Positions 47,341-57,310 of a DNA stretch of 64,000 nucleotides are shown here, in pieces. The notes under the pieces are model-generated. The model did not search any database. It worked only from the letters and a program-made list of their open reading frames with translations, and was not told where the DNA came from. The translations under genes and the position numbers were made by a program. The first letter of the stretch is position 1. The number at the start of each line of letters is the position of its first letter. This stretch comes from Gammaproteobacteria bacterium (GTDB lineage Bacteria; Pseudomonadota; Gammaproteobacteria; Eutrophobiales; Eutrophobiaceae): assembly GCA_965243115.1 (NCBI GenBank), contig CBDEUD010000003.1, positions 1,748,007-1,812,006 of the forward strand. Direction: 5' to 3'.

Positions 47341-48318
47341 TTACAGTAATATATTCTGCCGTCGTTCACGCAGGATATGGCAAGCGCCGACTAATGCCGG
47401 GTAATCGGCCGTGACAAGCCATACAGGAATGTCATTCATAAAACCGTACAATTTCCGTTTCGACGTAAAACGTTTGCTGAATGTGCCGGCAATCAGTATC
47501 GGTACAATACGCGGCAGGATACCCCCTCCCAGATAAACACCACCTGAAGCGCTTACCGTCAGCGCCATGTCACCGGCGTATTCACCCAAAATCCCACAAA
47601 ATGTATCGACAGTCTCAATGCAAACCGCATCAATTCCCTGCAGGGCAAGCTCTGTAATCCGGTCTGCGGTCAGTTGTCGAGGCGTGAAATCATGGATAGC
47701 GCAAAGTGTATCGTATAGCAATACCAATCCACTGCCTGAAAGCAGATCCTCAATTACGATACGGCCAATGCGCTTATGCAGGATTTTCAGGATATCAATT
47801 TCCAGGGGCGTGCCGGGGGAGAAGCCTGTGTTTCCGCCTTCACTGGCCACTACACGCCAACTTGCACCAACCGGCACCAGTACAGCCATACCCATTCCGG
47901 TTCCCGGACCGAGAGCCAGCCTGGTTCCTGTACGGTCCGGACAACCTGCACGGACACTCACCAGTTCATTTTCACTGATATACGGCAGGTAAGCAGCGAA
48001 TGCGGCAAAATCATTTACCACCCCGATATCTTTTGTCCCGGTAATCCGCGCTATGGAATCCTTTTCAAATGACCAGGTGTTGTTTGTCAAGCGGTACTCC
48101 GGTCCCCTGGCAGGCCCGGCGATTGCCAGGCATACACTTTCAACAGAACATGAAGATGTCTTTGACAGATACCATTCGATAGCATCATTCACCGAATCGA
48201 AACGACTGGATGGAATAACGCAGACGCACTCCGGAACCGGTTCCGCGAGAGAGCGGCAGAGAGCAAATCTCGTATTCGTGCCGCCTAGTTCTACTAATAG
48301 ATGCATGAAAATTCGCAC
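47341..48318 (-). CDS. glk: glucokinase
   Basis: N-terminal LLVELGGTNTRFALC ATP-binding motif of the Glk family. 325 aa. Confidence 0.8.
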   Translation of the reverse strand: MRIFMHLLVELGGTNTRFALCRSLAEPVPECVCVIPSSRFDSVNDAIEWYLSKTSSCSVESVCLAIAGPARGPEYRLTNNTWSFEKDSIARITGTKDIGVVNDFAAFAAYLPYISENELVSVRAGCPDRTGTRLALGPGTGMGMAVLVPVGASWRVVASEGGNTGFSPGTPLEIDILKILHKRIGRIVIEDLLSGSGLVLLYDTLCAIHDFTPRQLTADRITELALQGIDAVCIETVDTFCGILGEYAGDMALTVSASGGVYLGGGILPRIVPILIAGTFSKRFTSKRKLYGFMNDIPVWLVTADYPALVGACHILRERRQNILL

Positions 48319-48535
48319 TCCGATAACTCATCATAGATCCCGACCGTCAAGTGGCCTGGCAGAGAGCCGGCCCGTAACACCGTCAGCCAGATTAACCCAC
48401 TGATTTATATGATATTCACGCATACGCTGTCGGGGTATCAATCCGCAAGATCATATACTGAATGAAATGCATTACAAATTGTTTTATAGGGCAGGTATAA
48501 TATTTATGCAATTATGTATATAAAAGTAACATAGC

Positions 48536-50902
48536 ATGCCGATATCGTTTGAACACGCTTTCCAGACAAGCGATTACAGGCTTCGCAGGAGTAATTCCGC
48601 ACCTGAGAATTTGCCGCAGGAGGCATCATTATTCAGTGTCGGCAACGGTTTCATCGGGATACGCGGATTGATGGAGCCGATCGGTTCGGGCGATGCCGGT
48701 AATGACAGGTCCGGCGTTTTCCTCAACGGTGTCTACGAGCGCCGCCCGGTCAGCTACCATGAAGAAGCTTATGGATTTCCAAAAGTCAGTGATGTCCGGG
48801 TCCCGGTTCTTGATTGCACCGGGTTGATTCTGGAAATCGAAGGACGGGATATATATGCCGCCGGCTGGCACAAAATCAGAGACAACCGCGAACTGGACTA
48901 CGGAACGGGCATACTCTTCAGGGATATTGTTTTTATTAAGGATACGGGTGAGAAACTGATGCTCGGACTTGAGCGTCTGGTCAGTTTGTCACGGCGTACC
49001 ATCGCCGCGGGCAGGATTCGTATCCGCGCGGAAGGTTTCAGCGGCTCAATCACGCTCCACGCAACGATAAGCCATCCTTTTGAGAATGTCCCTTTGCAGG
49101 AAAGTGTTGTTGCTGATGGCATGCACGATCCCCGGATAGGTCCGGTGATATCCGCTAATCCCTGGAAAATGGAAACGGAGTTCTACAAGGACAATACCTG
49201 GACTTTTCTTTACCGAAGCGACATCGCGGGCATCGGCGTTGCTACCATGGATAGGATCATAGTGGGGGACGGCAGCGCTGTTTGCCGGTTAACGCCCGCC
49301 TATACCGATGGTTTCCGTCAGACACTGACACTCGATATTTCCCCCGGTAAACCCGCGGACCTGTTCCGCTTGAGCTGTTACGAGACTGATCGCGGAAACA
49401 GCAATATTGACCTGCTTGACATTTGCCGCCGTGAATTGGACAGGGCCCAGGCTACCGGATACCAGGCGCTTTCGCAGGAGCAGGCAGGGGAGATGGTGCA
49501 ATTTTCCGCAAAAGCCTTTGTGAGGCTGCCTGAGGACAGCGACCTGGAGGGCGCAGTCAATTTCAATTCCACGCAGTTGTTTATGGCTGCCGGCAGGGAC
49601 GCGGCCAGTTCAATCAGTGCGAAAGGACAGACGGGCGCAGGCTATGAAGGGCATGTTTTCTGGGATGCGGAAATATTCGTATTGCCGTTTTTCGTATTTA
49701 CCTTGCCGGACATTGCCAGGGGGATGCTCGAATACCGGCATTCCATGCTCGACTATGCGCGTGAAATTGCTGCCACGATGGGGCATACGAATGCCGCGCT
49801 GTATCCATGGCGGACTATCAGTGGTACGGAATGCTCCTCGTTTTTTCCTGCCGGCACAGCCCAGTATCACATTAACGCAGATATCGCGTATGCGGTTCAG
49901 CAGTATGTTGAGGCGACGGATGATCTCGAGTTTCTCAGCGGGCCGGGAATTGAGATGTTGGTCGAGACCGCGAGAATCTGGCCGCAGGCAGGGTTTTTCA
50001 ATCACCGCAAGGGCGGCGCCTTTTGCCTGAACCGCGTCACCGGTCCCGATGAATACTCCGCCATCGTAGATAACAATCTCTACACCAACGTTATGGCAAA
50101 GGGTCATCTTGAATACACGCTTGCTGCCATTCAGGCAATAAAGCGTCAAAGCCGTGATTGTTATACCTCAATACTACGGACTATGAATATCACCGATGAG
50201 GAGATGTTGTTATGGAAGAAAATTGCGGCCAATTTCTTCCTGCCCTACAGTACTGAAGAGGAGATTTATCTGCAGGATGAGCATTTTCTCGAAAAAGAAT
50301 TGTGGGATTTCGGTGCGACACCTGCAGACAATTACCCCTTGCTGTTGCACTACCACCCCTTGACGATATACCGCTATCAGGTCTGCAAGCAGGCGGATGC
50401 GGTCCTGGCCATGTTTCTCAGGGGCAGCGAATTCCCCTGTGAAAGCAAAGCCGCCACGCTGAAATACTACGAAAGGATTACCACCCAGGATTCCACGCTC
50501 TCACCCGGCACCTTTGCGATCGTATCGGCTGAGTGCAACGAACTTGAAAAGGCGTATGAATATCTCAGCAAGACCTCATTTATTGATATCGACGACTTGT
50601 GCGACAACTCCAGTCAGGGCTTGCACATGGCTGCCCTTGCCAACTCCTGGAACAGTATAGTATTCGGGTTTGGCGGTATGCGCAGCCATGGCGGGGTACT
50701 GAGATTCAACCCCAGGTATTCAGCTTCTCCGGGCTCTTATTCATTTTGCGTCAACTTTCGCGGGCGCTTAATCCGTGTCGATGTTGCAAGTGACAAGGCG
50801 GATTATCATTTGCTGGAAGGTAAGGAAATTGATATTTATCACGGGGACACAGCCTTCAGGCTGAAAGAACGGGTTTCAATCGATAACCGGCAAAATTCAT
50901 AA
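48536..50902 (+). CDS. glycoside hydrolase family 65 disaccharide phosphorylase (trehalose/maltose/kojibiose phosphorylase-type)
   Basis: 788 aa with GH65 central catalytic-domain features (HVFWDAEIFVLPFF). Confidence 0.85.
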   Translation: MPISFEHAFQTSDYRLRRSNSAPENLPQEASLFSVGNGFIGIRGLMEPIGSGDAGNDRSGVFLNGVYERRPVSYHEEAYGFPKVSDVRVPVLDCTGLILEIEGRDIYAAGWHKIRDNRELDYGTGILFRDIVFIKDTGEKLMLGLERLVSLSRRTIAAGRIRIRAEGFSGSITLHATISHPFENVPLQESVVADGMHDPRIGPVISANPWKMETEFYKDNTWTFLYRSDIAGIGVATMDRIIVGDGSAVCRLTPAYTDGFRQTLTLDISPGKPADLFRLSCYETDRGNSNIDLLDICRRELDRAQATGYQALSQEQAGEMVQFSAKAFVRLPEDSDLEGAVNFNSTQLFMAAGRDAASSISAKGQTGAGYEGHVFWDAEIFVLPFFVFTLPDIARGMLEYRHSMLDYAREIAATMGHTNAALYPWRTISGTECSSFFPAGTAQYHINADIAYAVQQYVEATDDLEFLSGPGIEMLVETARIWPQAGFFNHRKGGAFCLNRVTGPDEYSAIVDNNLYTNVMAKGHLEYTLAAIQAIKRQSRDCYTSILRTMNITDEEMLLWKKIAANFFLPYSTEEEIYLQDEHFLEKELWDFGATPADNYPLLLHYHPLTIYRYQVCKQADAVLAMFLRGSEFPCESKAATLKYYERITTQDSTLSPGTFAIVSAECNELEKAYEYLSKTSFIDIDDLCDNSSQGLHMAALANSWNSIVFGFGGMRSHGGVLRFNPRYSASPGSYSFCVNFRGRLIRVDVASDKADYHLLEGKEIDIYHGDTAFRLKERVSIDNRQNS

Positions 50903-50926: not shown

Positions 50927-51574
50927 ATGCAAATTGCCGCTGCTATTTTTGATCTGGACGGTGTGCTCGCCGACACGACACAGGCCCATTATCACTCCTG
51001 GTTGCGCCTGGCAAAAGAGGAGGGGATATATTTCGACAAGCAAATCAATGAACGCCTCAAAGGTGTATCCAGGATGGCTTCTCTCGAAATTTTGCTTGAG
51101 CGGTGCGGGAAGGAGTTCTCTCCGGTTGAAAAAGCCTCCCTGGCAGCCAGAAAAAACAATTATTACCGGGAAATAATCAGTTCACTCACGCCCGAGGCCC
51201 TGCTGCCGGGAGCGTTTGCCGTGCTTGACGCCTGTCGTATCCGGGGAATGAAAACCGCGCTTGCCTCGGCCAGTGAAAATGCGCCGGCGGTAATCAATAA
51301 CCTCGGAATAGCGTCGCTGCTGGACTACGTCGTGGACGTAAAATATATTACGAACCACAAACCGCACCCGGAAATCTTCCTTTCTGCGGCAAAGGGGATC
51401 CATGCTGAACCGCGCTCCTGTGTCGCTTTCGAAGATGCGGAAGCCGGTATCCGGGCTATACGGGCGGCGGAAATGATGGCTATAGGAATTGGTTGCCGCA
51501 AGCGTCTTTGCCAGGCGGATATGGTAATCGAATCGCTCGCGGAGTTTTCCCTGGATATGCTGCCTTGCCCGTGA
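50927..51574 (+). CDS. pgmB: beta-phosphoglucomutase (HAD family)
   Basis: AAIFDLDGVLADT motif I, KGVS/K, EDAEAGIRA. Immediately downstream of the GH65 gene. Confidence 0.8.
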   Translation: MQIAAAIFDLDGVLADTTQAHYHSWLRLAKEEGIYFDKQINERLKGVSRMASLEILLERCGKEFSPVEKASLAARKNNYYREIISSLTPEALLPGAFAVLDACRIRGMKTALASASENAPAVINNLGIASLLDYVVDVKYITNHKPHPEIFLSAAKGIHAEPRSCVAFEDAEAGIRAIRAAEMMAIGIGCRKRLCQADMVIESLAEFSLDMLPCP

Positions 51575-51614: not shown

Positions 51615-54380
51615 TCACGTTATAAAGTTTCTAAGTCTTCTAAATACGCTTTTTGCCCTCAGCCACATCCTGCCGGCACCGCGGCCGACAGCCGGCATGC
51701 GGTTTTGCCGGTATCCCTGCCTCCCCGGCGGGTTCGCCCCGGCCCGCCGGTGCGGATTGCGCGGTAGCAACGGGCGGGCGGCGAGCGCAGCCGTCGAAAT
51801 TTCATCGCTGCTACTGAATGTATAGGGATATGCTGATCCTGGAACGGCAGCGGATTCGGCGGTGTCACCCATATCTGATCCGGATGAAGGAGATTCATCG
51901 GTTGTATCAAAGCCCGGGCTGTCAAATTCGGCCCCGCTGTCCGCCGTGCGCGGCGCCAGCAATTGTTCCATGAAGTCCGCTGTCCATTTTGCAATCTCAT
52001 TCTCATGAACAAAGGCCTGCATCGACTTGTTTCCGGCTGCCAGCTTCTCCAGTTTTTCGGGGTCCTCCCTGGTTGCTATCACCTTATCGATCCCGCGTTT
52101 CAGTTGTTCCTTGATCATTTCTGGTTCCATGGTCCTCTCCAGCGTATATCCGTGTTTGACGAATTCATGGCGCCGTCCTATGCCTGCGCCTTCGCTCAAT
52201 ATAAACACGGCAGGACGGTGATCATGTCCTTCGTCCAGGTGTTTGGTGGAAATGACTTCAAGCGGCGTCAGGTTCATGCCGTCAGACAGCGCGGTGATGA
52301 CAAATACGTCATAGGCCGCGAACAAATCGGATTTTTCAGGATCAAAAACGGGCCCGGTCAAAACGACGGGCGCATAACCCAGTTTGCCCTGGTAGGTTTG
52401 ATTGACACGGTTGATTTTTCCATAAAGCGTATCTACGTATTTTTTGTATGAAGGAACGTTTTCCCTGCTTGGCGCCAGGGTAAGGACAAAAACAGGTTTG
52501 TAACCTGATTCCAGCAACTCTTCGATATTTTCCTTGAAATAAAGGTCAATGGCGTCCACCCTGTGGTGCAGGCCCTTGGTGTAATCAGCCCGTTCGATGC
52601 CGCCTATCCATATTGACTCCGGATCATCAATGGCTGCCTTCGTGGCCTCGATATCGTCAATATCGTAGCGCCGCTCCACGCCGCCTTTCTCTTGCGGGTA
52701 ACTTTGCACCTGCGCATCAAATTTCCGTTTCACCACTTCCCGTGCCTGCTGCAAGCTTCTCGAGGCGCCCGTTTCATGTTGTGCTTCGTAGTCTATGCTG
52801 ATTGGAAAATCCCTGACGGTCACAACCCTGCTGCCGACGGGAACCGAATAATGACCCCGGCCGATCCTTTCAATCCTTGATTTATCTATTCCAAGGGGAT
52901 CCGCCAGCTTTTCAACCAGTTCAATAAAATGCCCGGCATCGTCATACATCTGCACGCCTACCACGTCGGATTGAAGCAGGGAGTGCAGTATTTCAACTAC
53001 TTTTGCCTCACCCAACTGTTCTGTGAATGTATCCGGATTTGCAAAAGGAATATGAAGAAAAAATCCGATCCTGTCAGTATTCTTTGTCAGTTTCTCCCGT
53101 AGCATGCCGGGCGTCAGCAACAGCTGGTAATCCTGTATCCAGGCGACATTCTCCTTATCACCTGAAAAATCCGCAAACAACGCGTCGGCAAAAGCCTGGT
53201 TGGTTTCCCGGTATATTTCCCAGTCCTGTGGTGCCGGAGTTACAAATTCCGCCAGATCATGGAATACCGGCCACAGCCAGCCGTTTACCACGTTTTCATA
53301 AAATTTACTGAATACGGCTTTATCCATGCTGAAATGTGAAACGTCATAAGGTTCCCTGCTTTCGATATCGCCTGCGACATAACTTTTGTTCAGACCCGGT
53401 CGATATAATCTTGAAGCATGCAGACCCAGGGGGTTAATCAGGCTTTCAGTATGCTGTGTATCCGGACTGAACTGATCCACGGTATGACTGTATTGCTCCA
53501 TCCGCTCAGCCAGGTCATGTACAGGCGGATTAGTACCGGAATTACTGATCCAGATACCTCCGCTGTCCAGTGCGCCCCTCATGGCAGTAGCCAGTCCCCC
53601 TGCACTCAGGCTGAGTCTGTCTTTTTTAACGACCGGTCCGCGATTGGAGGCAACCAGGAAGTTTTTGCCTGTCAGCAGGGTATTTAATCTCGCCTGATCC
53701 TTTGATTTGGTGAATTGCACGGCATCTCCGCCCGGTGCGGGGCTGCCGGCTACCTTATCCAGCAACCCCTCTGCTGATTTTCCCCGCGCCACGGCATCCG
53801 CCACTGCATCCGCATTTTTCTCCCACCGGTCTCCTGCCTGACCTGTTCCGTTTTGCAATTGTGCGCCCGATACTCCCTGTACTGCATGGGCTGCCTCGTG
53901 GGCTGCAACTTTCAGGGTAGGTAATTCACCGAACGCGACGTGACGACCCTTGTAATATGCATCCGACCCTGCGTGAGTGTTGGCTTCCCTGGCCTCCGGT
54001 CCGGTATGTGCGGTCAAATCTCCGATATCGTGTTTGCCGAAGGAAGTTTGAATCCGTTCCATGAACGGGTATTCCATACCCGGGCCGCGCAATCCCCGGC
54101 CGGTGATTTCGTGGATGTATTCAGCCCGGCGTTTATCGTACAAGCCTTTAACAAACTTGAGCGTGCCACGCATACCGTAATAACTGTTCATGGTATCGAT
54201 GTGGCTGGATAACTGGTACGGTGATGCCCCGTACCGGATCCCGGTTTCTACATCGAACCGCGCGGCTTCGCCGTTGCGAGCATCAGTAAGACGTGAGGCT
54301 GTTCCCGTATCGGGGTTCCTGGCGTGATCCGGACTCCCGCCGGATTTATAACGATTATTAGTCCTGGAAAATATATTCAT
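51615..54380 (-). CDS. DUF4157 domain fused to trehalose-6-phosphate synthase (GT20, OtsA-like), candidate cargo
   Basis: N-terminus has DUF4157 (RIQTSFGKHDIGDLTAHTG...AAHEAAHAVQ). Then LVASNRGPV...GGLATAMRGAL...WPVFHD...IGFFLHIPF...ALSDGMNLTPLE matches OtsA. Confidence 0.8.
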   Translation of the reverse strand: MNIFSRTNNRYKSGGSPDHARNPDTGTASRLTDARNGEAARFDVETGIRYGASPYQLSSHIDTMNSYYGMRGTLKFVKGLYDKRRAEYIHEITGRGLRGPGMEYPFMERIQTSFGKHDIGDLTAHTGPEAREANTHAGSDAYYKGRHVAFGELPTLKVAAHEAAHAVQGVSGAQLQNGTGQAGDRWEKNADAVADAVARGKSAEGLLDKVAGSPAPGGDAVQFTKSKDQARLNTLLTGKNFLVASNRGPVVKKDRLSLSAGGLATAMRGALDSGGIWISNSGTNPPVHDLAERMEQYSHTVDQFSPDTQHTESLINPLGLHASRLYRPGLNKSYVAGDIESREPYDVSHFSMDKAVFSKFYENVVNGWLWPVFHDLAEFVTPAPQDWEIYRETNQAFADALFADFSGDKENVAWIQDYQLLLTPGMLREKLTKNTDRIGFFLHIPFANPDTFTEQLGEAKVVEILHSLLQSDVVGVQMYDDAGHFIELVEKLADPLGIDKSRIERIGRGHYSVPVGSRVVTVRDFPISIDYEAQHETGASRSLQQAREVVKRKFDAQVQSYPQEKGGVERRYDIDDIEATKAAIDDPESIWIGGIERADYTKGLHHRVDAIDLYFKENIEELLESGYKPVFVLTLAPSRENVPSYKKYVDTLYGKINRVNQTYQGKLGYAPVVLTGPVFDPEKSDLFAAYDVFVITALSDGMNLTPLEVISTKHLDEGHDHRPAVFILSEGAGIGRRHEFVKHGYTLERTMEPEMIKEQLKRGIDKVIATREDPEKLEKLAAGNKSMQAFVHENEIAKWTADFMEQLLAPRTADSGAEFDSPGFDTTDESPSSGSDMGDTAESAAVPGSAYPYTFSSSDEISTAALAARPLLPRNPHRRAGANPPGRQGYRQNRMPAVGRGAGRMWLRAKSVFRRLRNFIT

Positions 54381-54416
54381 CCGGGTTTTACAATAAATAA
54401 TGTAATTGATTACATC

Positions 54417-54505
54417 ATTTATAATTTATAAAGAAACCCTGTGGCAAGTAATAATTTACCAGGCCGGATAAGTAAAACTGCAGGCTGGTAAATTACCGGT
54501 TGTAA
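54417..54505. promoter_or_regulatory. divergent promoter region with two oppositely oriented CTGGTAAAT-N6-TTG boxes
   Basis: Minus-oriented CTGGTAAAT-N6-TTGCCA...TATAAAT. Plus-oriented CTGGTAAAT-N6-TTGTAA. Confidence 0.45.
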
Positions 54506-54519
54506 CTCCTCGGCCCGTC

Positions 54520-56067
54520 ATGCAACACTTCCGGGCAAGTATCTTTTTTATGGGTAATTTATTTGTGAAAAATATCACATACCTATTTTTAACGAATGCA
54601 CAATATACTTCTGAAGGAGCCAGGGATGAGCTACCGGCGCGGTATGGGCGGCAAACTTCCCGCGGGCATTCCCCGACCGGTTACGCGGGTTGCAAATACG
54701 GAATTGATCTGTTTGAAACGCTTGATCACGCGTTACAAAAAATTCGCCATTGCATAAATAACGATATCTCACCTGCCAATTACGCCGGAGCCATCTCTGA
54801 TGCCAATGGAAGGCTGGGTAATCGAACCTTCTTGCGCCACGTAGAGGGATTGCAGCAACGAAGGCGGCATACGCATGCCCATCATGTGGCGAACAAGGCG
54901 TTACGCGGAGCAGGGCGCCCCCTGACCCGCCTGGACGCTATCCAGGCATCCTTCGGACACCATGATGTGACCGGCATGCGGGAAGTTACCGGCAGTTCTG
55001 CCCGGCAGGCATTGACCTTGTTGCAGGCGGAGGGATTTACCGCTAATGGGCGCATGGCTGTCAGCGCTACGCCTGATCTGTTTACCCAGGCTCATGAAGC
55101 GGCCCACGGTGTGCAACAGGCAGCGCTTGGAAGTGACTTGAGGTTGAAGGACGGGGTTGGCGAGGCGGACGACAAATATGAACGTCATGCGGATGCGGTG
55201 GCGGAAAAGGTTCTGCGAGGCGAGTCTGCCCAGGAATTGCTGGACGCCATGGCAGGTGGAATGCAGACGCCAGTGGAAGCAAGCAATCATGCCGGGCCTG
55301 TGCAGTTTAATGAAGAAATCATCGACAAATTCAAAAGCAGCCAATCCCGATTGATCTTTCTGGATTATGACGGAACCCTGGTGGGCTTTCACGAGGACCC
55401 CATGCAGGCCGCTCCGGACGATGAACTGCATGAAATTATTGAGCGGTTGACCCGGTGTGAAAATACGAAAGTCGTCATCATTACCGGCAGGAAGAGGGAA
55501 GAAATATTCAGGTTTCTGGGCGGGCATGAAAACCTGGAATTCGTTGCCGAACATGGGATGTGGAGGAAAAAAGCGGAGCACAAGGATTGGCAACCGGCGA
55601 TGGAACTGGACCTTTCCTGGAAAGAAGAAATCAGGCCGGTCTTCCGGAGATATGTTAACATTATGCCGAATAGTTATATCGAGGAAAAAGTCTATTCATT
55701 GGGGTGGCACTATCGCCCGGTGCAGGACGCCGTGGCGGCGGCGCAGGCAGGCAGGCAACTGGAAGCGGAACTGAAAGAATATTTCAGACAGGCGGGCAGG
55801 GAGAAGGAATGGGTGGTTACGAATGACAAGATGGTGGTGGAAATAAATACTGCAGCGGTAGATAAAGGCACGTCGGCATCCGTAATTGCGGGCGAAGGAT
55901 CGTACGACTTGATTTTGGCCATGGGCGACAGCAGCACGGATGAATTTATGTTCAGGGCACTTTCCGATCATCAGACTGTCAAAGTAGGTACAGGTGTAAC
56001 TGCCGCCCGTCACACGGTGAAAGACGTCGCGGCAGTACGCAGCCTGTTGAAAAATTTAGTTGCATAG
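54520..56067 (+). CDS. DUF4157 domain fused to trehalose-6-phosphate phosphatase (HAD, OtsB-like), candidate cargo
   Basis: Leader GNRTFLRHV. DUF4157 (IQASFGHHDVTGMREVTG...AHEAAHGVQQ). Then HAD/OtsB motifs LIFLDYDGTL, ITGRK, GDSSTDE. The true start may be the downstream Met at 54550. Confidence 0.75.
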   Translation: MQHFRASIFFMGNLFVKNITYLFLTNAQYTSEGARDELPARYGRQTSRGHSPTGYAGCKYGIDLFETLDHALQKIRHCINNDISPANYAGAISDANGRLGNRTFLRHVEGLQQRRRHTHAHHVANKALRGAGRPLTRLDAIQASFGHHDVTGMREVTGSSARQALTLLQAEGFTANGRMAVSATPDLFTQAHEAAHGVQQAALGSDLRLKDGVGEADDKYERHADAVAEKVLRGESAQELLDAMAGGMQTPVEASNHAGPVQFNEEIIDKFKSSQSRLIFLDYDGTLVGFHEDPMQAAPDDELHEIIERLTRCENTKVVIITGRKREEIFRFLGGHENLEFVAEHGMWRKKAEHKDWQPAMELDLSWKEEIRPVFRRYVNIMPNSYIEEKVYSLGWHYRPVQDAVAAAQAGRQLEAELKEYFRQAGREKEWVVTNDKMVVEINTAAVDKGTSASVIAGEGSYDLILAMGDSSTDEFMFRALSDHQTVKVGTGVTAARHTVKDVAAVRSLLKNLVA

Positions 56068-56217
56068 TACGTGTCAGAGGCATGTAGGAAAGCTGGATAG
56101 TGTTTTCTATCACCTGATGAAGTGTTGTCCCGGAAACCGGGGCAGGGGGCTTCGGTGGCAAAGAGAGTAAAAAGAGGCAGTAAAACAAAAGTGGCGGTGC
56201 CTGATATAACCACTGCG

Positions 56218-57210
56218 ATGACGATGGACCACATTGCGCAACTGACAAACCTGTCCAAGGCGACCGTATCAAGGGCTTTGCGTGACAGCCCCCTGGTAAC
56301 CGTGGAGACCAAGACGCTTGTAGTTGAGGCAGCAAAAAAATGTGGCTATACCGTCAATAAAAATGCCAGGAAACTGAGAGATAAACGCACCAATACTATC
56401 GCGATTGCCCTGGATTTTCCCTCCTATCCCGGTCAGCGCATATCAGACCCGTTTATTTTTGAGCTGCTCACCGATATCGTTAATGCTCTCTCTGTTCGTG
56501 AACAGGATGTGCTTCTGTGTTCTCCGGTTGTAGATAATGCCCTTTCCTACCAGAATATTCTTGCGGCAAAAAGCGCGGATGGAATTATTTTTCTGGGCCA
56601 GGGAGAGAAGGAGCAAATTCTGGAAGACCTGGCGAAGCTGAAGGCGCCATTCGTCGTCTGGGGAGGGGTCACCGCCAATCCGAAGTACTGTACCGTGGGA
56701 AGTGATAATTTATACGGGGGGCATCTGGTCGGCAGCAGATTTGCCAGCCTTGGTTACAGTAATGTCCTGTTTATGGGAAATTCCCGGCATCTTGAATTCC
56801 GGTTGCGCAGGGAAGGTATGGAAACGGGATTGAAGGAAGGAGGAAAGCAAAGCAGAATAACGGATTTGACGATAACGGATTTTACCTACGAAGCCAGTTA
56901 CAGAGCAGCAAAACAATATCTGGAAAACTCAAAAGGGACCGTAGATGCGGTATTTGCCGTCAGCGATATTATGGCGATCGCTTTTGCCGTGGCGTTGAAA
57001 GAAACCGGGAGGACCCCGGGCAAGGATGTCGCCATTATCGGTTACAACGATATACCGGTCGCTTCTTATTTTTCACCTGCAATCAGCACCATTCGGCAGG
57101 ATACTGTCAAGGCGGGCGGATTACTGGTTGAAAAACTCATGCAGATACTGGACGGTTTCAACCCCCAATCGGTTATGCTGCCCACAAATCTTGTCTTGAG
57201 AGAAACCTGA
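56218..57210 (+). CDS. LacI-family transcriptional regulator
   Basis: N-terminal HTH (MDHIAQLTNLSKATVSRAL) and a periplasmic-binding-protein-like sugar-binding core. Confidence 0.8.
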   Translation: MTMDHIAQLTNLSKATVSRALRDSPLVTVETKTLVVEAAKKCGYTVNKNARKLRDKRTNTIAIALDFPSYPGQRISDPFIFELLTDIVNALSVREQDVLLCSPVVDNALSYQNILAAKSADGIIFLGQGEKEQILEDLAKLKAPFVVWGGVTANPKYCTVGSDNLYGGHLVGSRFASLGYSNVLFMGNSRHLEFRLRREGMETGLKEGGKQSRITDLTITDFTYEASYRAAKQYLENSKGTVDAVFAVSDIMAIAFAVALKETGRTPGKDVAIIGYNDIPVASYFSPAISTIRQDTVKAGGLLVEKLMQILDGFNPQSVMLPTNLVLRET

Positions 57211-57310
57211 CGTTTGCTGCCTGTCCCGTCCGGAAGGTGAAGGAATGGAGCAAAATTTATACGAATGTAATGCATTTCATGCTATGATATAACGCAACGC
57301 TGGCGGTTGA

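Follow-up and report, generated by a model that had tools for sequence, protein, structure and literature searches.

Two neighbouring genes in the 64,000-nt stretch of a gammaproteobacterial contig (CBDEUD010000003.1) analysed here—the window, to which all coordinates below refer—encode the two enzymes of trehalose synthesis, each behind an N-terminal module that carries a leader of ~45 aa and a DUF4157 domain. The trehalose-6-phosphate synthase (TPS), designated the OtsA fusion, has 921 aa (51615-54380, minus strand), and the trehalose-6-phosphate phosphatase (TPP), designated the OtsB fusion, has 515 aa as the longest open reading frame (ORF; 54520-56067, plus strand). The window also contains a complete extracellular contractile injection system (eCIS; 18163-41458, plus strand), and the interpretation favoured here, albeit with modest confidence, is that both fusions are cargo of the eCIS, making trehalose-6-phosphate (T6P) and trehalose in a target that is probably eukaryotic.

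Several observations point in this direction: the layout of both proteins matches that of the proven lumen cargo Cgo1 and Cgo2; their leader recurs on proteins that clearly have no housekeeping role; a promoter box is shared with the structural operon of the eCIS; the genes lie near the eCIS core; the family is narrow and accessory-like, one orthologue being disrupted by an insertion that bears an insertion sequence (IS); and the catalytic sites are intact. A preliminary description of this DNA had already proposed injected effectors. Both ORFs are present where it had placed them, and its proposal is partly supported, namely by the architecture, the shared box, the position, the intact catalytic sites and the narrow family, but it had missed a LacI-type operator on the promoter of the OtsA fusion. 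Eight loci were compared in all, the window and seven others (L001-L007), the relatives of the fusions coming from metagenome-assembled genomes of uncultured Gammaproteobacteria.

Enzyme domains and the shared N-terminal module

The OtsA fusion is built of a variable N-terminus, the leader, the DUF4157 domain, the GT20 domain and a tail. Its leader and DUF4157 core, the latter with HEAAHAVQ and WEKNADAVA, occupy aa 44-225 (53706-54251, minus); the leader reads VETGIxxGxSPxQ..IDTMNSYYGMRxTLxF, and the Pfam family PF13699—the eCIS core domain, formerly DUF4157—is matched at aa 106-169 (HEAAH) with 29.8 bits against a cutoff of 22. The GT20 domain that follows at aa 241-810 (51951-53660, minus) is complete (PF00982, E = 1e-58), with OtsA/Tps1 as its best matches in the PDB (4e-37), and it is strongly diverged, being only 27-31% identical to known TPS enzymes. 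Residues R247, G261-G262, Y361, W368, D417, H443, R597, K602, R639, D700 and E708 are invariant in all ten OtsA-fusion orthologues aligned, in which the GT20 motifs are unchanged as well: the SNRxP arginine, GGL, the Y...LWP acceptor loop, QDYQL, LHIPF, ERADYTKG, PSRE and DGMNL...E. Mapped by motif, these positions are taken to correspond to R9, G22, Y76, W85, D130, H154, R262, K267, R300, D361 and E369 of E. coli OtsA, the catalytic and substrate-binding residues of that enzyme. The tail (aa 811-921; 51618-51950, minus) is variable and rich in Ser, Asp and Glu, and ends in a conserved basic, predicted helical peptide, GRMWLRAKSVFRRLRNFIT, the helix being placed at aa 902-920 in a low-confidence AlphaFold2 model.

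Concerning the OtsB fusion, the leader ALQKIRHCINNDISPANYAGAISDANGRLGNRTFLRHV and a DUF4157-like core with HEAAHGVQQ and YERHADAVA are found at aa 71-245 (54730-55254, plus). The domain stays under the Pfam threshold (E = 0.8); its identification comes from the 51% identity, over 198 aa (E = 2e-60), between the N-terminal module and that of a 254-aa DUF4157 protein of the same window, and the motif HEAAHGVQQ is invariant in 12 of 12 orthologues. The remainder, aa 265-515 (55312-56064, plus), is a HAD-IIB trehalose-6-phosphate phosphatase domain, which is matched by PF02358 (Trehalose_PPase, E = 1e-39) and by the NCBIfam equivalog TIGR00685 with 108.3 bits, above its 68-bit cutoff. Fungal TPPs in the PDB match it at 9e-27, its identity with the TPP halves of bifunctional enzymes amounts to 37-45%, and DYDGT, (T/S)GR, K449 and GDxSTDE, its four HAD motifs, are invariant in 12 orthologues. 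The full GT20 synthase and HAD phosphatase of the preliminary description, each with an N-terminal DUF4157 HExxH domain, are thus both real; only the start of the OtsB fusion has to be revised, probably to GTG 54565 (giving 500 aa) or ATG 54550 instead of 54520, because divergent orthologues begin at an aligned 'MK.I.Y' and because the geometry of the box and the -35 element leaves no promoter space before 54520. A reading of the fusions as pseudo-enzymes or decaying relics was dropped, all catalytic positions being invariant across orthologues.

Alignment of the four DUF4157 proteins of the window and of the orthologue sets reveals three layers in the N-terminal module: a variable stretch of 40-70 aa, the leader of ~45 aa, with the approximate consensus [AS]L..V..GI..G.SP.Q....ID.....GNR.FL..V, and the DUF4157 core, in which HEAAH is followed downstream by YE(R/K)(H/N)ADAVA. 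Among orthologues the first 40-70 aa are conserved to ~30% (with a predicted local distance difference test score, pLDDT, below 30 in low-confidence models), the leader to 55-65%, the core to 75-77% (75% in the OtsA fusion, 77% in the OtsB fusion) and the enzyme domains to 72-79%. According to a hidden Markov model (HMM) of the module and the alignment, leader and DUF4157 are common to four proteins of the window and the leader itself to five, so that the GNRxFLxxV leader reported earlier on other candidate cargo is a genuine feature.

The nearest paralogue of the OtsB-fusion N-terminus is the standalone 254-aa protein already mentioned (44031-44795, plus), and that of the OtsA-fusion N-terminus is a 1281-aa protein (58330-62175, minus) with 48% identity (E = 1e-47). 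The latter has no Pfam or NCBIfam match beyond the module and is kept at 69-88% identity in seven loci; its true start is probably near M29, orthologue alignments beginning at residues 22-32. It should also be mentioned that it contains an internal direct repeat (61157-61197 and 61250-61290, 88%) and hydrophobic stretches. The fifth protein, found by the module HMM, is an ankyrin-repeat protein of 776 aa (9534-11864, minus) that has the leader without the DUF4157/HExxH core, which marks the leader as a separable, system-specific element, in keeping with AlgoCIS, where loading depends on the N-terminal region and not on DUF4157. It carries two basic clusters resembling the nuclear localisation signal (NLS) of SV40, GPKKRKKKG and EKKKKKKSRG, as well as Pro-rich STPPSTPPP repeats; these features make it a candidate for an eCIS effector directed to the nucleus and hint at a eukaryotic target.

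In other genomes, close copies of the module (~50% identity) are found on many unrelated C-terminal domains. An exhaustive HMMER scan of 1.84 billion representatives gave, among the best 150, only the family's own representative as a combination of module and GT20, and no ordinary OtsA or OtsB bearing the module. Taken generally, 36% of the known eCIS toxins carry a DUF4157 domain vs 0.06% of other proteins (PMC11297309).

The two enzyme domains together tile one bifunctional TPS-TPP, a type (PRK14501) common in Bacteroidota, with the catalytic motifs intact. In the bifunctional enzyme P0138, residues 5-460 align with the synthase fusion and residues 481-723 with the phosphatase fusion, and the NCBIfam bifunctional model is matched at 72-466 and 454-725, respectively. 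The differences are that here there are two genes, each with a leader/DUF4157 extension of ~230-260 aa, and that the synthase half is only 27% identical and has two insertions and a 110-aa tail. The simplest history suggested by these alignments would be that an ancestral bifunctional TPS-TPP was split and that its two halves acquired cargo modules of different subtypes.

Promoter elements of the fusion genes

The divergent region between the fusions is 139 bp long and holds two distinct DNA elements. The first is a box, CTGGTAAATTA, present in two copies as the preliminary description had stated: one in the OtsA-fusion promoter (54452-54462, minus), followed by a -35 element TTGCCA (54447-54442) and a -10 element TATAAAT (54423-54417), and the other facing the OtsB fusion (54485-54495, plus), with a -35 element TTGTAA (54500-54505) and a weak -10. 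An initial version of the box, GGTAAATTACC with two mismatches, gave 35 matches and was too loose; the composite pattern CTGGTARMTWR-N4-TTG used instead has six matches in the window vs none in 100 shuffles of it, every match pointing to a downstream gene. The four remaining sites precede the first sheath gene (box and -35 element of the eCIS structural-operon promoter, 18008-18025, plus), a 629-aa ORF (box at 12052), two small regulator-like ORFs (16057) and the 1281-aa DUF4157 protein (62222, within the promoter 62215-62232). TATAAAT stands 17-18 nt after TTGnnn at four of the six sites and GATAAT at the sheath-operon site, whereas the -10 is poor on the OtsB side. By its geometry, the box is a predicted activator site located just upstream of a sigma-70-type promoter. 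It is kept before the OtsA fusion in L001-L004 and L006 and before the OtsB fusion in L003 and L004, and the arrangement upstream of OtsA-fusion orthologues persists down to 66% protein identity.

The second element is a 14-bp palindrome with the consensus TGTAATGCATTACA, which has four sites in the window, all of them intergenic. The copy TGTAATTGATTACA (54401-54414), a LacI-type operator candidate, overlaps the predicted transcription start of the OtsA fusion and has counterparts in L001, L002, L003 and L006. A perfect copy lies upstream of a TonB-dependent receptor gene (44850-44863; kept in L001, L003, L005 and L007), another in the divergent region of the glucokinase and GH65 genes (48463-48476; kept in L001, L003, L004 and L006) and the last between a LacI gene and an esterase gene (57266-57279; kept in L001, L003, L004, L005 and L007). 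It should be noted that four sites vs 1.7 expected is not a significant excess by itself, the argument resting on position and conservation. The palindrome is not to be equated with the eCIS box, being a separate element that occurs only at the promoters of sugar genes and of the OtsA fusion.

The gene for a LacI-family repressor (56122-57210, plus; Pfam LacI and Peripla_BP, no NCBIfam equivalog) is situated nearby, and because of this and of the recurrence before the co-located sugar genes, the palindrome is best read as the predicted operator of that protein. The sugar genes are those for the TonB-dependent receptor (44868-47264, plus), glucokinase (glk; 47341-48318, minus), a GH65 phosphorylase (48536-50902, plus) and beta-phosphoglucomutase (pgmB; 50927-51574, plus), so that the GH65/pgmB/glk/LacI neighbourhood recognised in the preliminary description is borne out by Pfam and NCBIfam. 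By its predicted promoter elements, the OtsA fusion belongs to two regulons at once, that of the eCIS and one for disaccharide utilisation, and since the operator is common to the fusion and the catabolic genes, the metabolic neighbourhood appears to be a regulatory partner, too. Behind the palindrome copy at 57266, an Abhydrolase_3 esterase gene (57311-58297, plus) is kept beside the fusion pair; a second esterase and an MFS transporter accompany it in L001, L002 and L005, and the esterase group stays with the fusions in L002 although GH65, pgmB and glk are absent there.

Several genes and signals around the box sites deserve mention with regard to the regulation of the regulon. Hairpins with T-runs at 12149-12180 and 18103-18140 (plus; dG -27.8 and -23.1 kcal/mol, z about -5.5) are predicted leader terminators standing between the box promoters and the first codons of the 629-aa ORF and the first sheath gene, respectively, whereas the effector promoters are without any; this suggests that the structural operon needs antitermination or some other readthrough mechanism. 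The 629-aa ORF itself (12189-14078, plus) has neither a family match nor the cargo leader. The two small ORFs (81 and 125 aa; 16434-17058, plus), which are situated upstream of the eCIS and preceded by a box promoter, have no significant match in Pfam, the 125-aa one giving a weak signal of a sigma-70 region-4-like helix-turn-helix (E = 0.02-0.2); both might act as regulators, be it of the box regulon or of readthrough at the terminators. A MalT-like LAL regulator (TPR_MalT and GerE; 62244-63884, minus) runs off the end of the window, has 910-919 aa in L007 and is retained beside the 1281-aa DUF4157 protein in three loci (L003, L004 and L007); it may be a sugar-sensing activator acting on the CTGGTAAATTA box.

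Distribution, proposed mechanism and competing explanations

Each fusion has only ~14-16 close homologues in 5.8 billion clusters, beyond which the identity falls to ~30-45%, the matches there being ordinary TPS-TPP enzymes. In all eight loci the two genes are paired, in either divergent or tandem orientation; in seven of them the pair adjoins GH65/pgmB/glk, and likewise in seven it adjoins the DUF4157 protein of 1258-1281 aa and the esterase. An eCIS can be seen beside the pair in three loci (the window, L001 and L003), and L007 has the standalone DUF4157 gene at its edge. A fusion and an eCIS ATPase occur together on at least three more contigs (4125636, 93662 and 620820 nt) when paired by size, a procedure that missed the ATPase of L001. 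In L002, which is without the catabolic genes, box promoters are kept on the synthase fusion and on the large DUF4157 protein. L006 is rearranged, with IS elements, a TonB fragment and a split GH65 gene, and has no large DUF4157 toxin within 10 kb.

An insertion of ~5 kb (L004 11941-16946) interrupts the synthase fusion of L004 at residue 645, the phosphatase gene remaining intact, which means that the synthase-fusion gene is dispensable there. The insertion carries an ISXO2-like transposase, a serralysin/RTX-type metalloprotease of 717 aa with FG-GAP/VCBS-like repeats, and two small ORFs. It is the only case counted as a real gene disruption: frame disruptions in L003 and L005 were not accepted as pseudogenes, since the coverage of L005 is 3.3x in long reads and the breaks may be assembly errors.

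In the mechanism proposed on this basis, a bifunctional TPS-TPP would have been split and each half would have gained a variable N-terminus, the leader and the DUF4157 HExxH domain. Both genes would be transcribed from activator-dependent promoters bearing the box of the eCIS structural operon, that of the OtsA fusion being additionally gated by the LacI-type operator. By analogy with Cgo1/Cgo2 of AlgoCIS, the fusions may enter the tube lumen by way of their N-terminal region, assisted by the AAA ATPase, and then be injected into the target cell, where UDP-glucose and glucose-6-phosphate would be converted to T6P and further to trehalose, perturbing sugar signalling and diverting carbon. The TonB receptor, GH65, beta-phosphoglucomutase and glucokinase might harvest the resulting disaccharide, or recycle the products of the enzymes inside the producer before loading. 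An extension of this scheme, which is considered unlikely, is nutrient farming with feedback, an opine-like strategy based on delivered proteins: trehalose made in the target by the injected pair would be taken up via the TonB receptor and split by GH65, beta-phosphoglucomutase and glucokinase, relieving the LacI-type repressor and boosting effector output.

A number of points weigh against the two fusions being eCIS cargo that makes T6P and trehalose in a target. The OtsA fusion scores 227 bits with the NCBIfam OtsA equivalog TIGR02400, not reaching the cutoff of 565, and its GT20 domain has two lineage-specific insertions (about aa 283-345 and 548-590), so that the substrate is a prediction from sequence; loading and delivery are predictions, too. 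T6P is the most potent intermediate as regards signalling or toxicity, and a phosphatase delivered along with the synthase would clear it, which weakens a simple toxin model. The promoter on the OtsB side has its poor -10; no eCIS is found in the 10-kb flanks of the pair viewed in L002 and L006; and the tight synteny with the catabolic genes, together with the LacI operator, would also fit a purely metabolic role. The AlphaFold2 models of the fusions have a mean pLDDT of 39.6 and 49.2, from alignments of only 8 and 12 close sequences, and are too poor to be informative. Finally, the N-terminal region is needed for loading into the tube lumen of AlgoCIS, while DUF4157 is dispensable (bioRxiv 10.64898/2026.05.27.728243), which makes the domain a marker rather than a mechanism.

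The main rival, a role inside the producer, is rather unlikely. Trehalose would in that case be made alongside the eCIS, for example as a compatible solute or stabiliser ahead of programmed lysis or in a regulated trehalose cycle with GH65, pgmB and glk, and DUF4157 would serve as a regulatory or proteolytic pro-domain. Both the LacI-type operator shared by the OtsA-fusion promoter and the catabolic genes and the position of the pair beside GH65/pgmB/glk in seven of the eight loci would be explained, but a single operator governing both synthesis and breakdown of trehalose would create a futile cycle within one compartment, whereas it makes sense with synthesis taking place in another cell. 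L006, with the pair and the catabolic genes and neither toxin nor eCIS within 10 kb, would fit as well, but it is a rearranged, decaying locus. Release by lysis, as implied by a cassette at 41525-43227, and loading independent of DUF4157 in AlgoCIS are also in line with a domestic function. That the leader is found on the 1281-aa and the ankyrin/NLS-like proteins, which would be senseless as cytoplasmic enzymes, that the module is combined elsewhere with numerous unrelated C-terminal domains and is missing from ordinary OtsA and OtsB among the best 150 of the representatives scanned, and that one orthologue is disrupted, unlike what is expected of a core physiological role, all argue against it.

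More doubtful still is a combination of toxin and safeguard, in which the synthase fusion alone would be harmful, through build-up of T6P and drain of UDP-glucose and glucose-6-phosphate, and the phosphatase fusion together with GH65, pgmB and glk would protect the producer before loading. Accumulation of T6P is toxic where TPP is lacking or lost, as in yeast tps2, Mycobacterium otsB2 and C. elegans gob-1; the strictly conserved divergent or tandem pairing, the operator shared by the catabolic genes and the different subtypes of the two leaders are compatible with such a division. An immunity protein would not, however, be expected to have a full conserved leader, a DUF4157 domain with a core conserved to 77% and its own box, and in L004 it is the synthase that is broken and the phosphatase gene that is intact. 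As to the chemistry, it is very improbable that the GT20 enzyme makes another phosphorylated glycoside, dephosphorylated by its HAD partner—a pair which could still be cargo. The family does include glucosylglycerol-phosphate synthase (GgpS), and the low identity to known TPS enzymes, the score of 227 bits vs a cutoff of 565 and the two insertions leave room for it; the GgpS model, however, scores 105 bits here, the OtsA model twice as much, all of the residues by which OtsA binds the acceptor phosphate and the UDP are retained, the partner is above the T6PP equivalog cutoff, and both halves tile a bifunctional TPS-TPP.

Relation to known systems and the surrounding eCIS locus

The closest likeness to the proposed eCIS cargo is seen in Cgo1 and Cgo2 of AlgoCIS, lumen cargo with a variable or disordered N-terminal domain, DUF4157 and a variable C-terminal domain, one of them having 1228 aa (bioRxiv 10.64898/2026.05.27.728243), and in the eCIS-associated toxins of the DUF4157 class. 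There, as here, a variable N-terminus is followed by the DUF4157 HExxH domain and a variable C-terminal functional domain, a short distance of a few genes separates the coding sequences from the eCIS core, with an AAA ATPase beside them, and the cargo proteins of one system are similar to each other at the N-terminus. In silico, the fusions belong with the DUF4157-class eCIS-associated proteins by their DUF4157/HExxH domain, poorly conserved N-terminus and proximity to an eCIS. They differ in that the payload is a matched set of sugar-biosynthesis enzymes, not nucleases, proteases, transglutaminases or unknown toxin domains, in that the promoter also has the operator of a sugar repressor, and in that their loading is a prediction. 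The supplements of two large eCIS-toxin surveys have no entry for PF00982, PF02358 or 'trehalose', and the literature searched yielded no report linking DUF4157 or contractile injection systems with trehalose enzymes. The cargo class is thus known; what is new is the split, matched biosynthetic pair as putative payload and its dual control by eCIS and sugar-repressor elements.

For a delivered T6P synthase, the precedent named in the preliminary description, RipTPS, is correctly cited: this type III secretion system (T3SS) effector of Ralstonia solanacearum is a TPS with an added N-terminal translocation domain that makes T6P in the host (PMC4278537). Both are specialised TPS proteins with an N-terminal delivery domain, RipTPS being a second TPS copy, and by analogy the fusions may work like RipTPS via an unrelated delivery module. 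The N-terminal domains are unrelated, the delivery systems are different (T3SS vs eCIS), and Ralstonia delivers no phosphatase partner; no T3SS genes were seen in the 64-kb window, and the N-terminal module of the fusions is of the eCIS type. A protein from outside the window, P0370 (881 aa), has a WXG100-like N-terminal domain (PF25547, 4e-14) and a full GT20 domain (1e-133), and may be an independent T6P synthase on a secretion-targeting module, in a type VII context. The opine-type manipulation by Agrobacterium offers an analogy only: there, too, delivered biosynthesis leads to a compound for which the bacterium has dedicated, co-regulated uptake and catabolism, but here it would be protein and not DNA that is delivered, trehalose is a common and not a private sugar, and the link consists only of the shared operator and synteny.

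Known and predicted eCIS payloads are overwhelmingly toxins, so that the cargo reading, if true, would mean that these machines can reprogramme the metabolism of the target and not only kill it. RipTPS, a lone precedent from the T3SS, would be joined by an example from a second delivery system and, with P0370, possibly from a third, and the two enzymes (921 and ~500 aa) with a defined leader of ~45 aa would provide a natural model for engineering the loading of eCIS cargo. The coexistence of the eCIS box and a sugar-repressor operator on one promoter represents a testable link between nutrient sensing and effector expression.

The eCIS itself is real and complete. The core operon (18163-41458, plus) comprises four sheath paralogues, two gp19-type tubes, a LysM tube, the spike, baseplate J, the CIS tape measure, Pvc16 and a Pvc15-like AAA ATPase (38056-40311, plus), and is followed at its 3' side by a second Pvc16 copy (Pvc16b) and the 254-aa DUF4157 protein. 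The fusion genes are the sixth and seventh after Pvc16b, i.e. fewer than about ten genes from the eCIS core including the AAA ATPase, and the same holds for L001 and L003. Between the two Pvc16 genes, an endolysin-like M15 peptidase and three small membrane or coiled-coil ORFs (41525-43227, plus), kept in L001 and L003, are probably a lysis cassette for particle release. At the other end, a pair of genes for an ECF sigma factor and a FecR-type anti-sigma factor (14230-15866, plus) is located directly upstream of the eCIS regulatory region.

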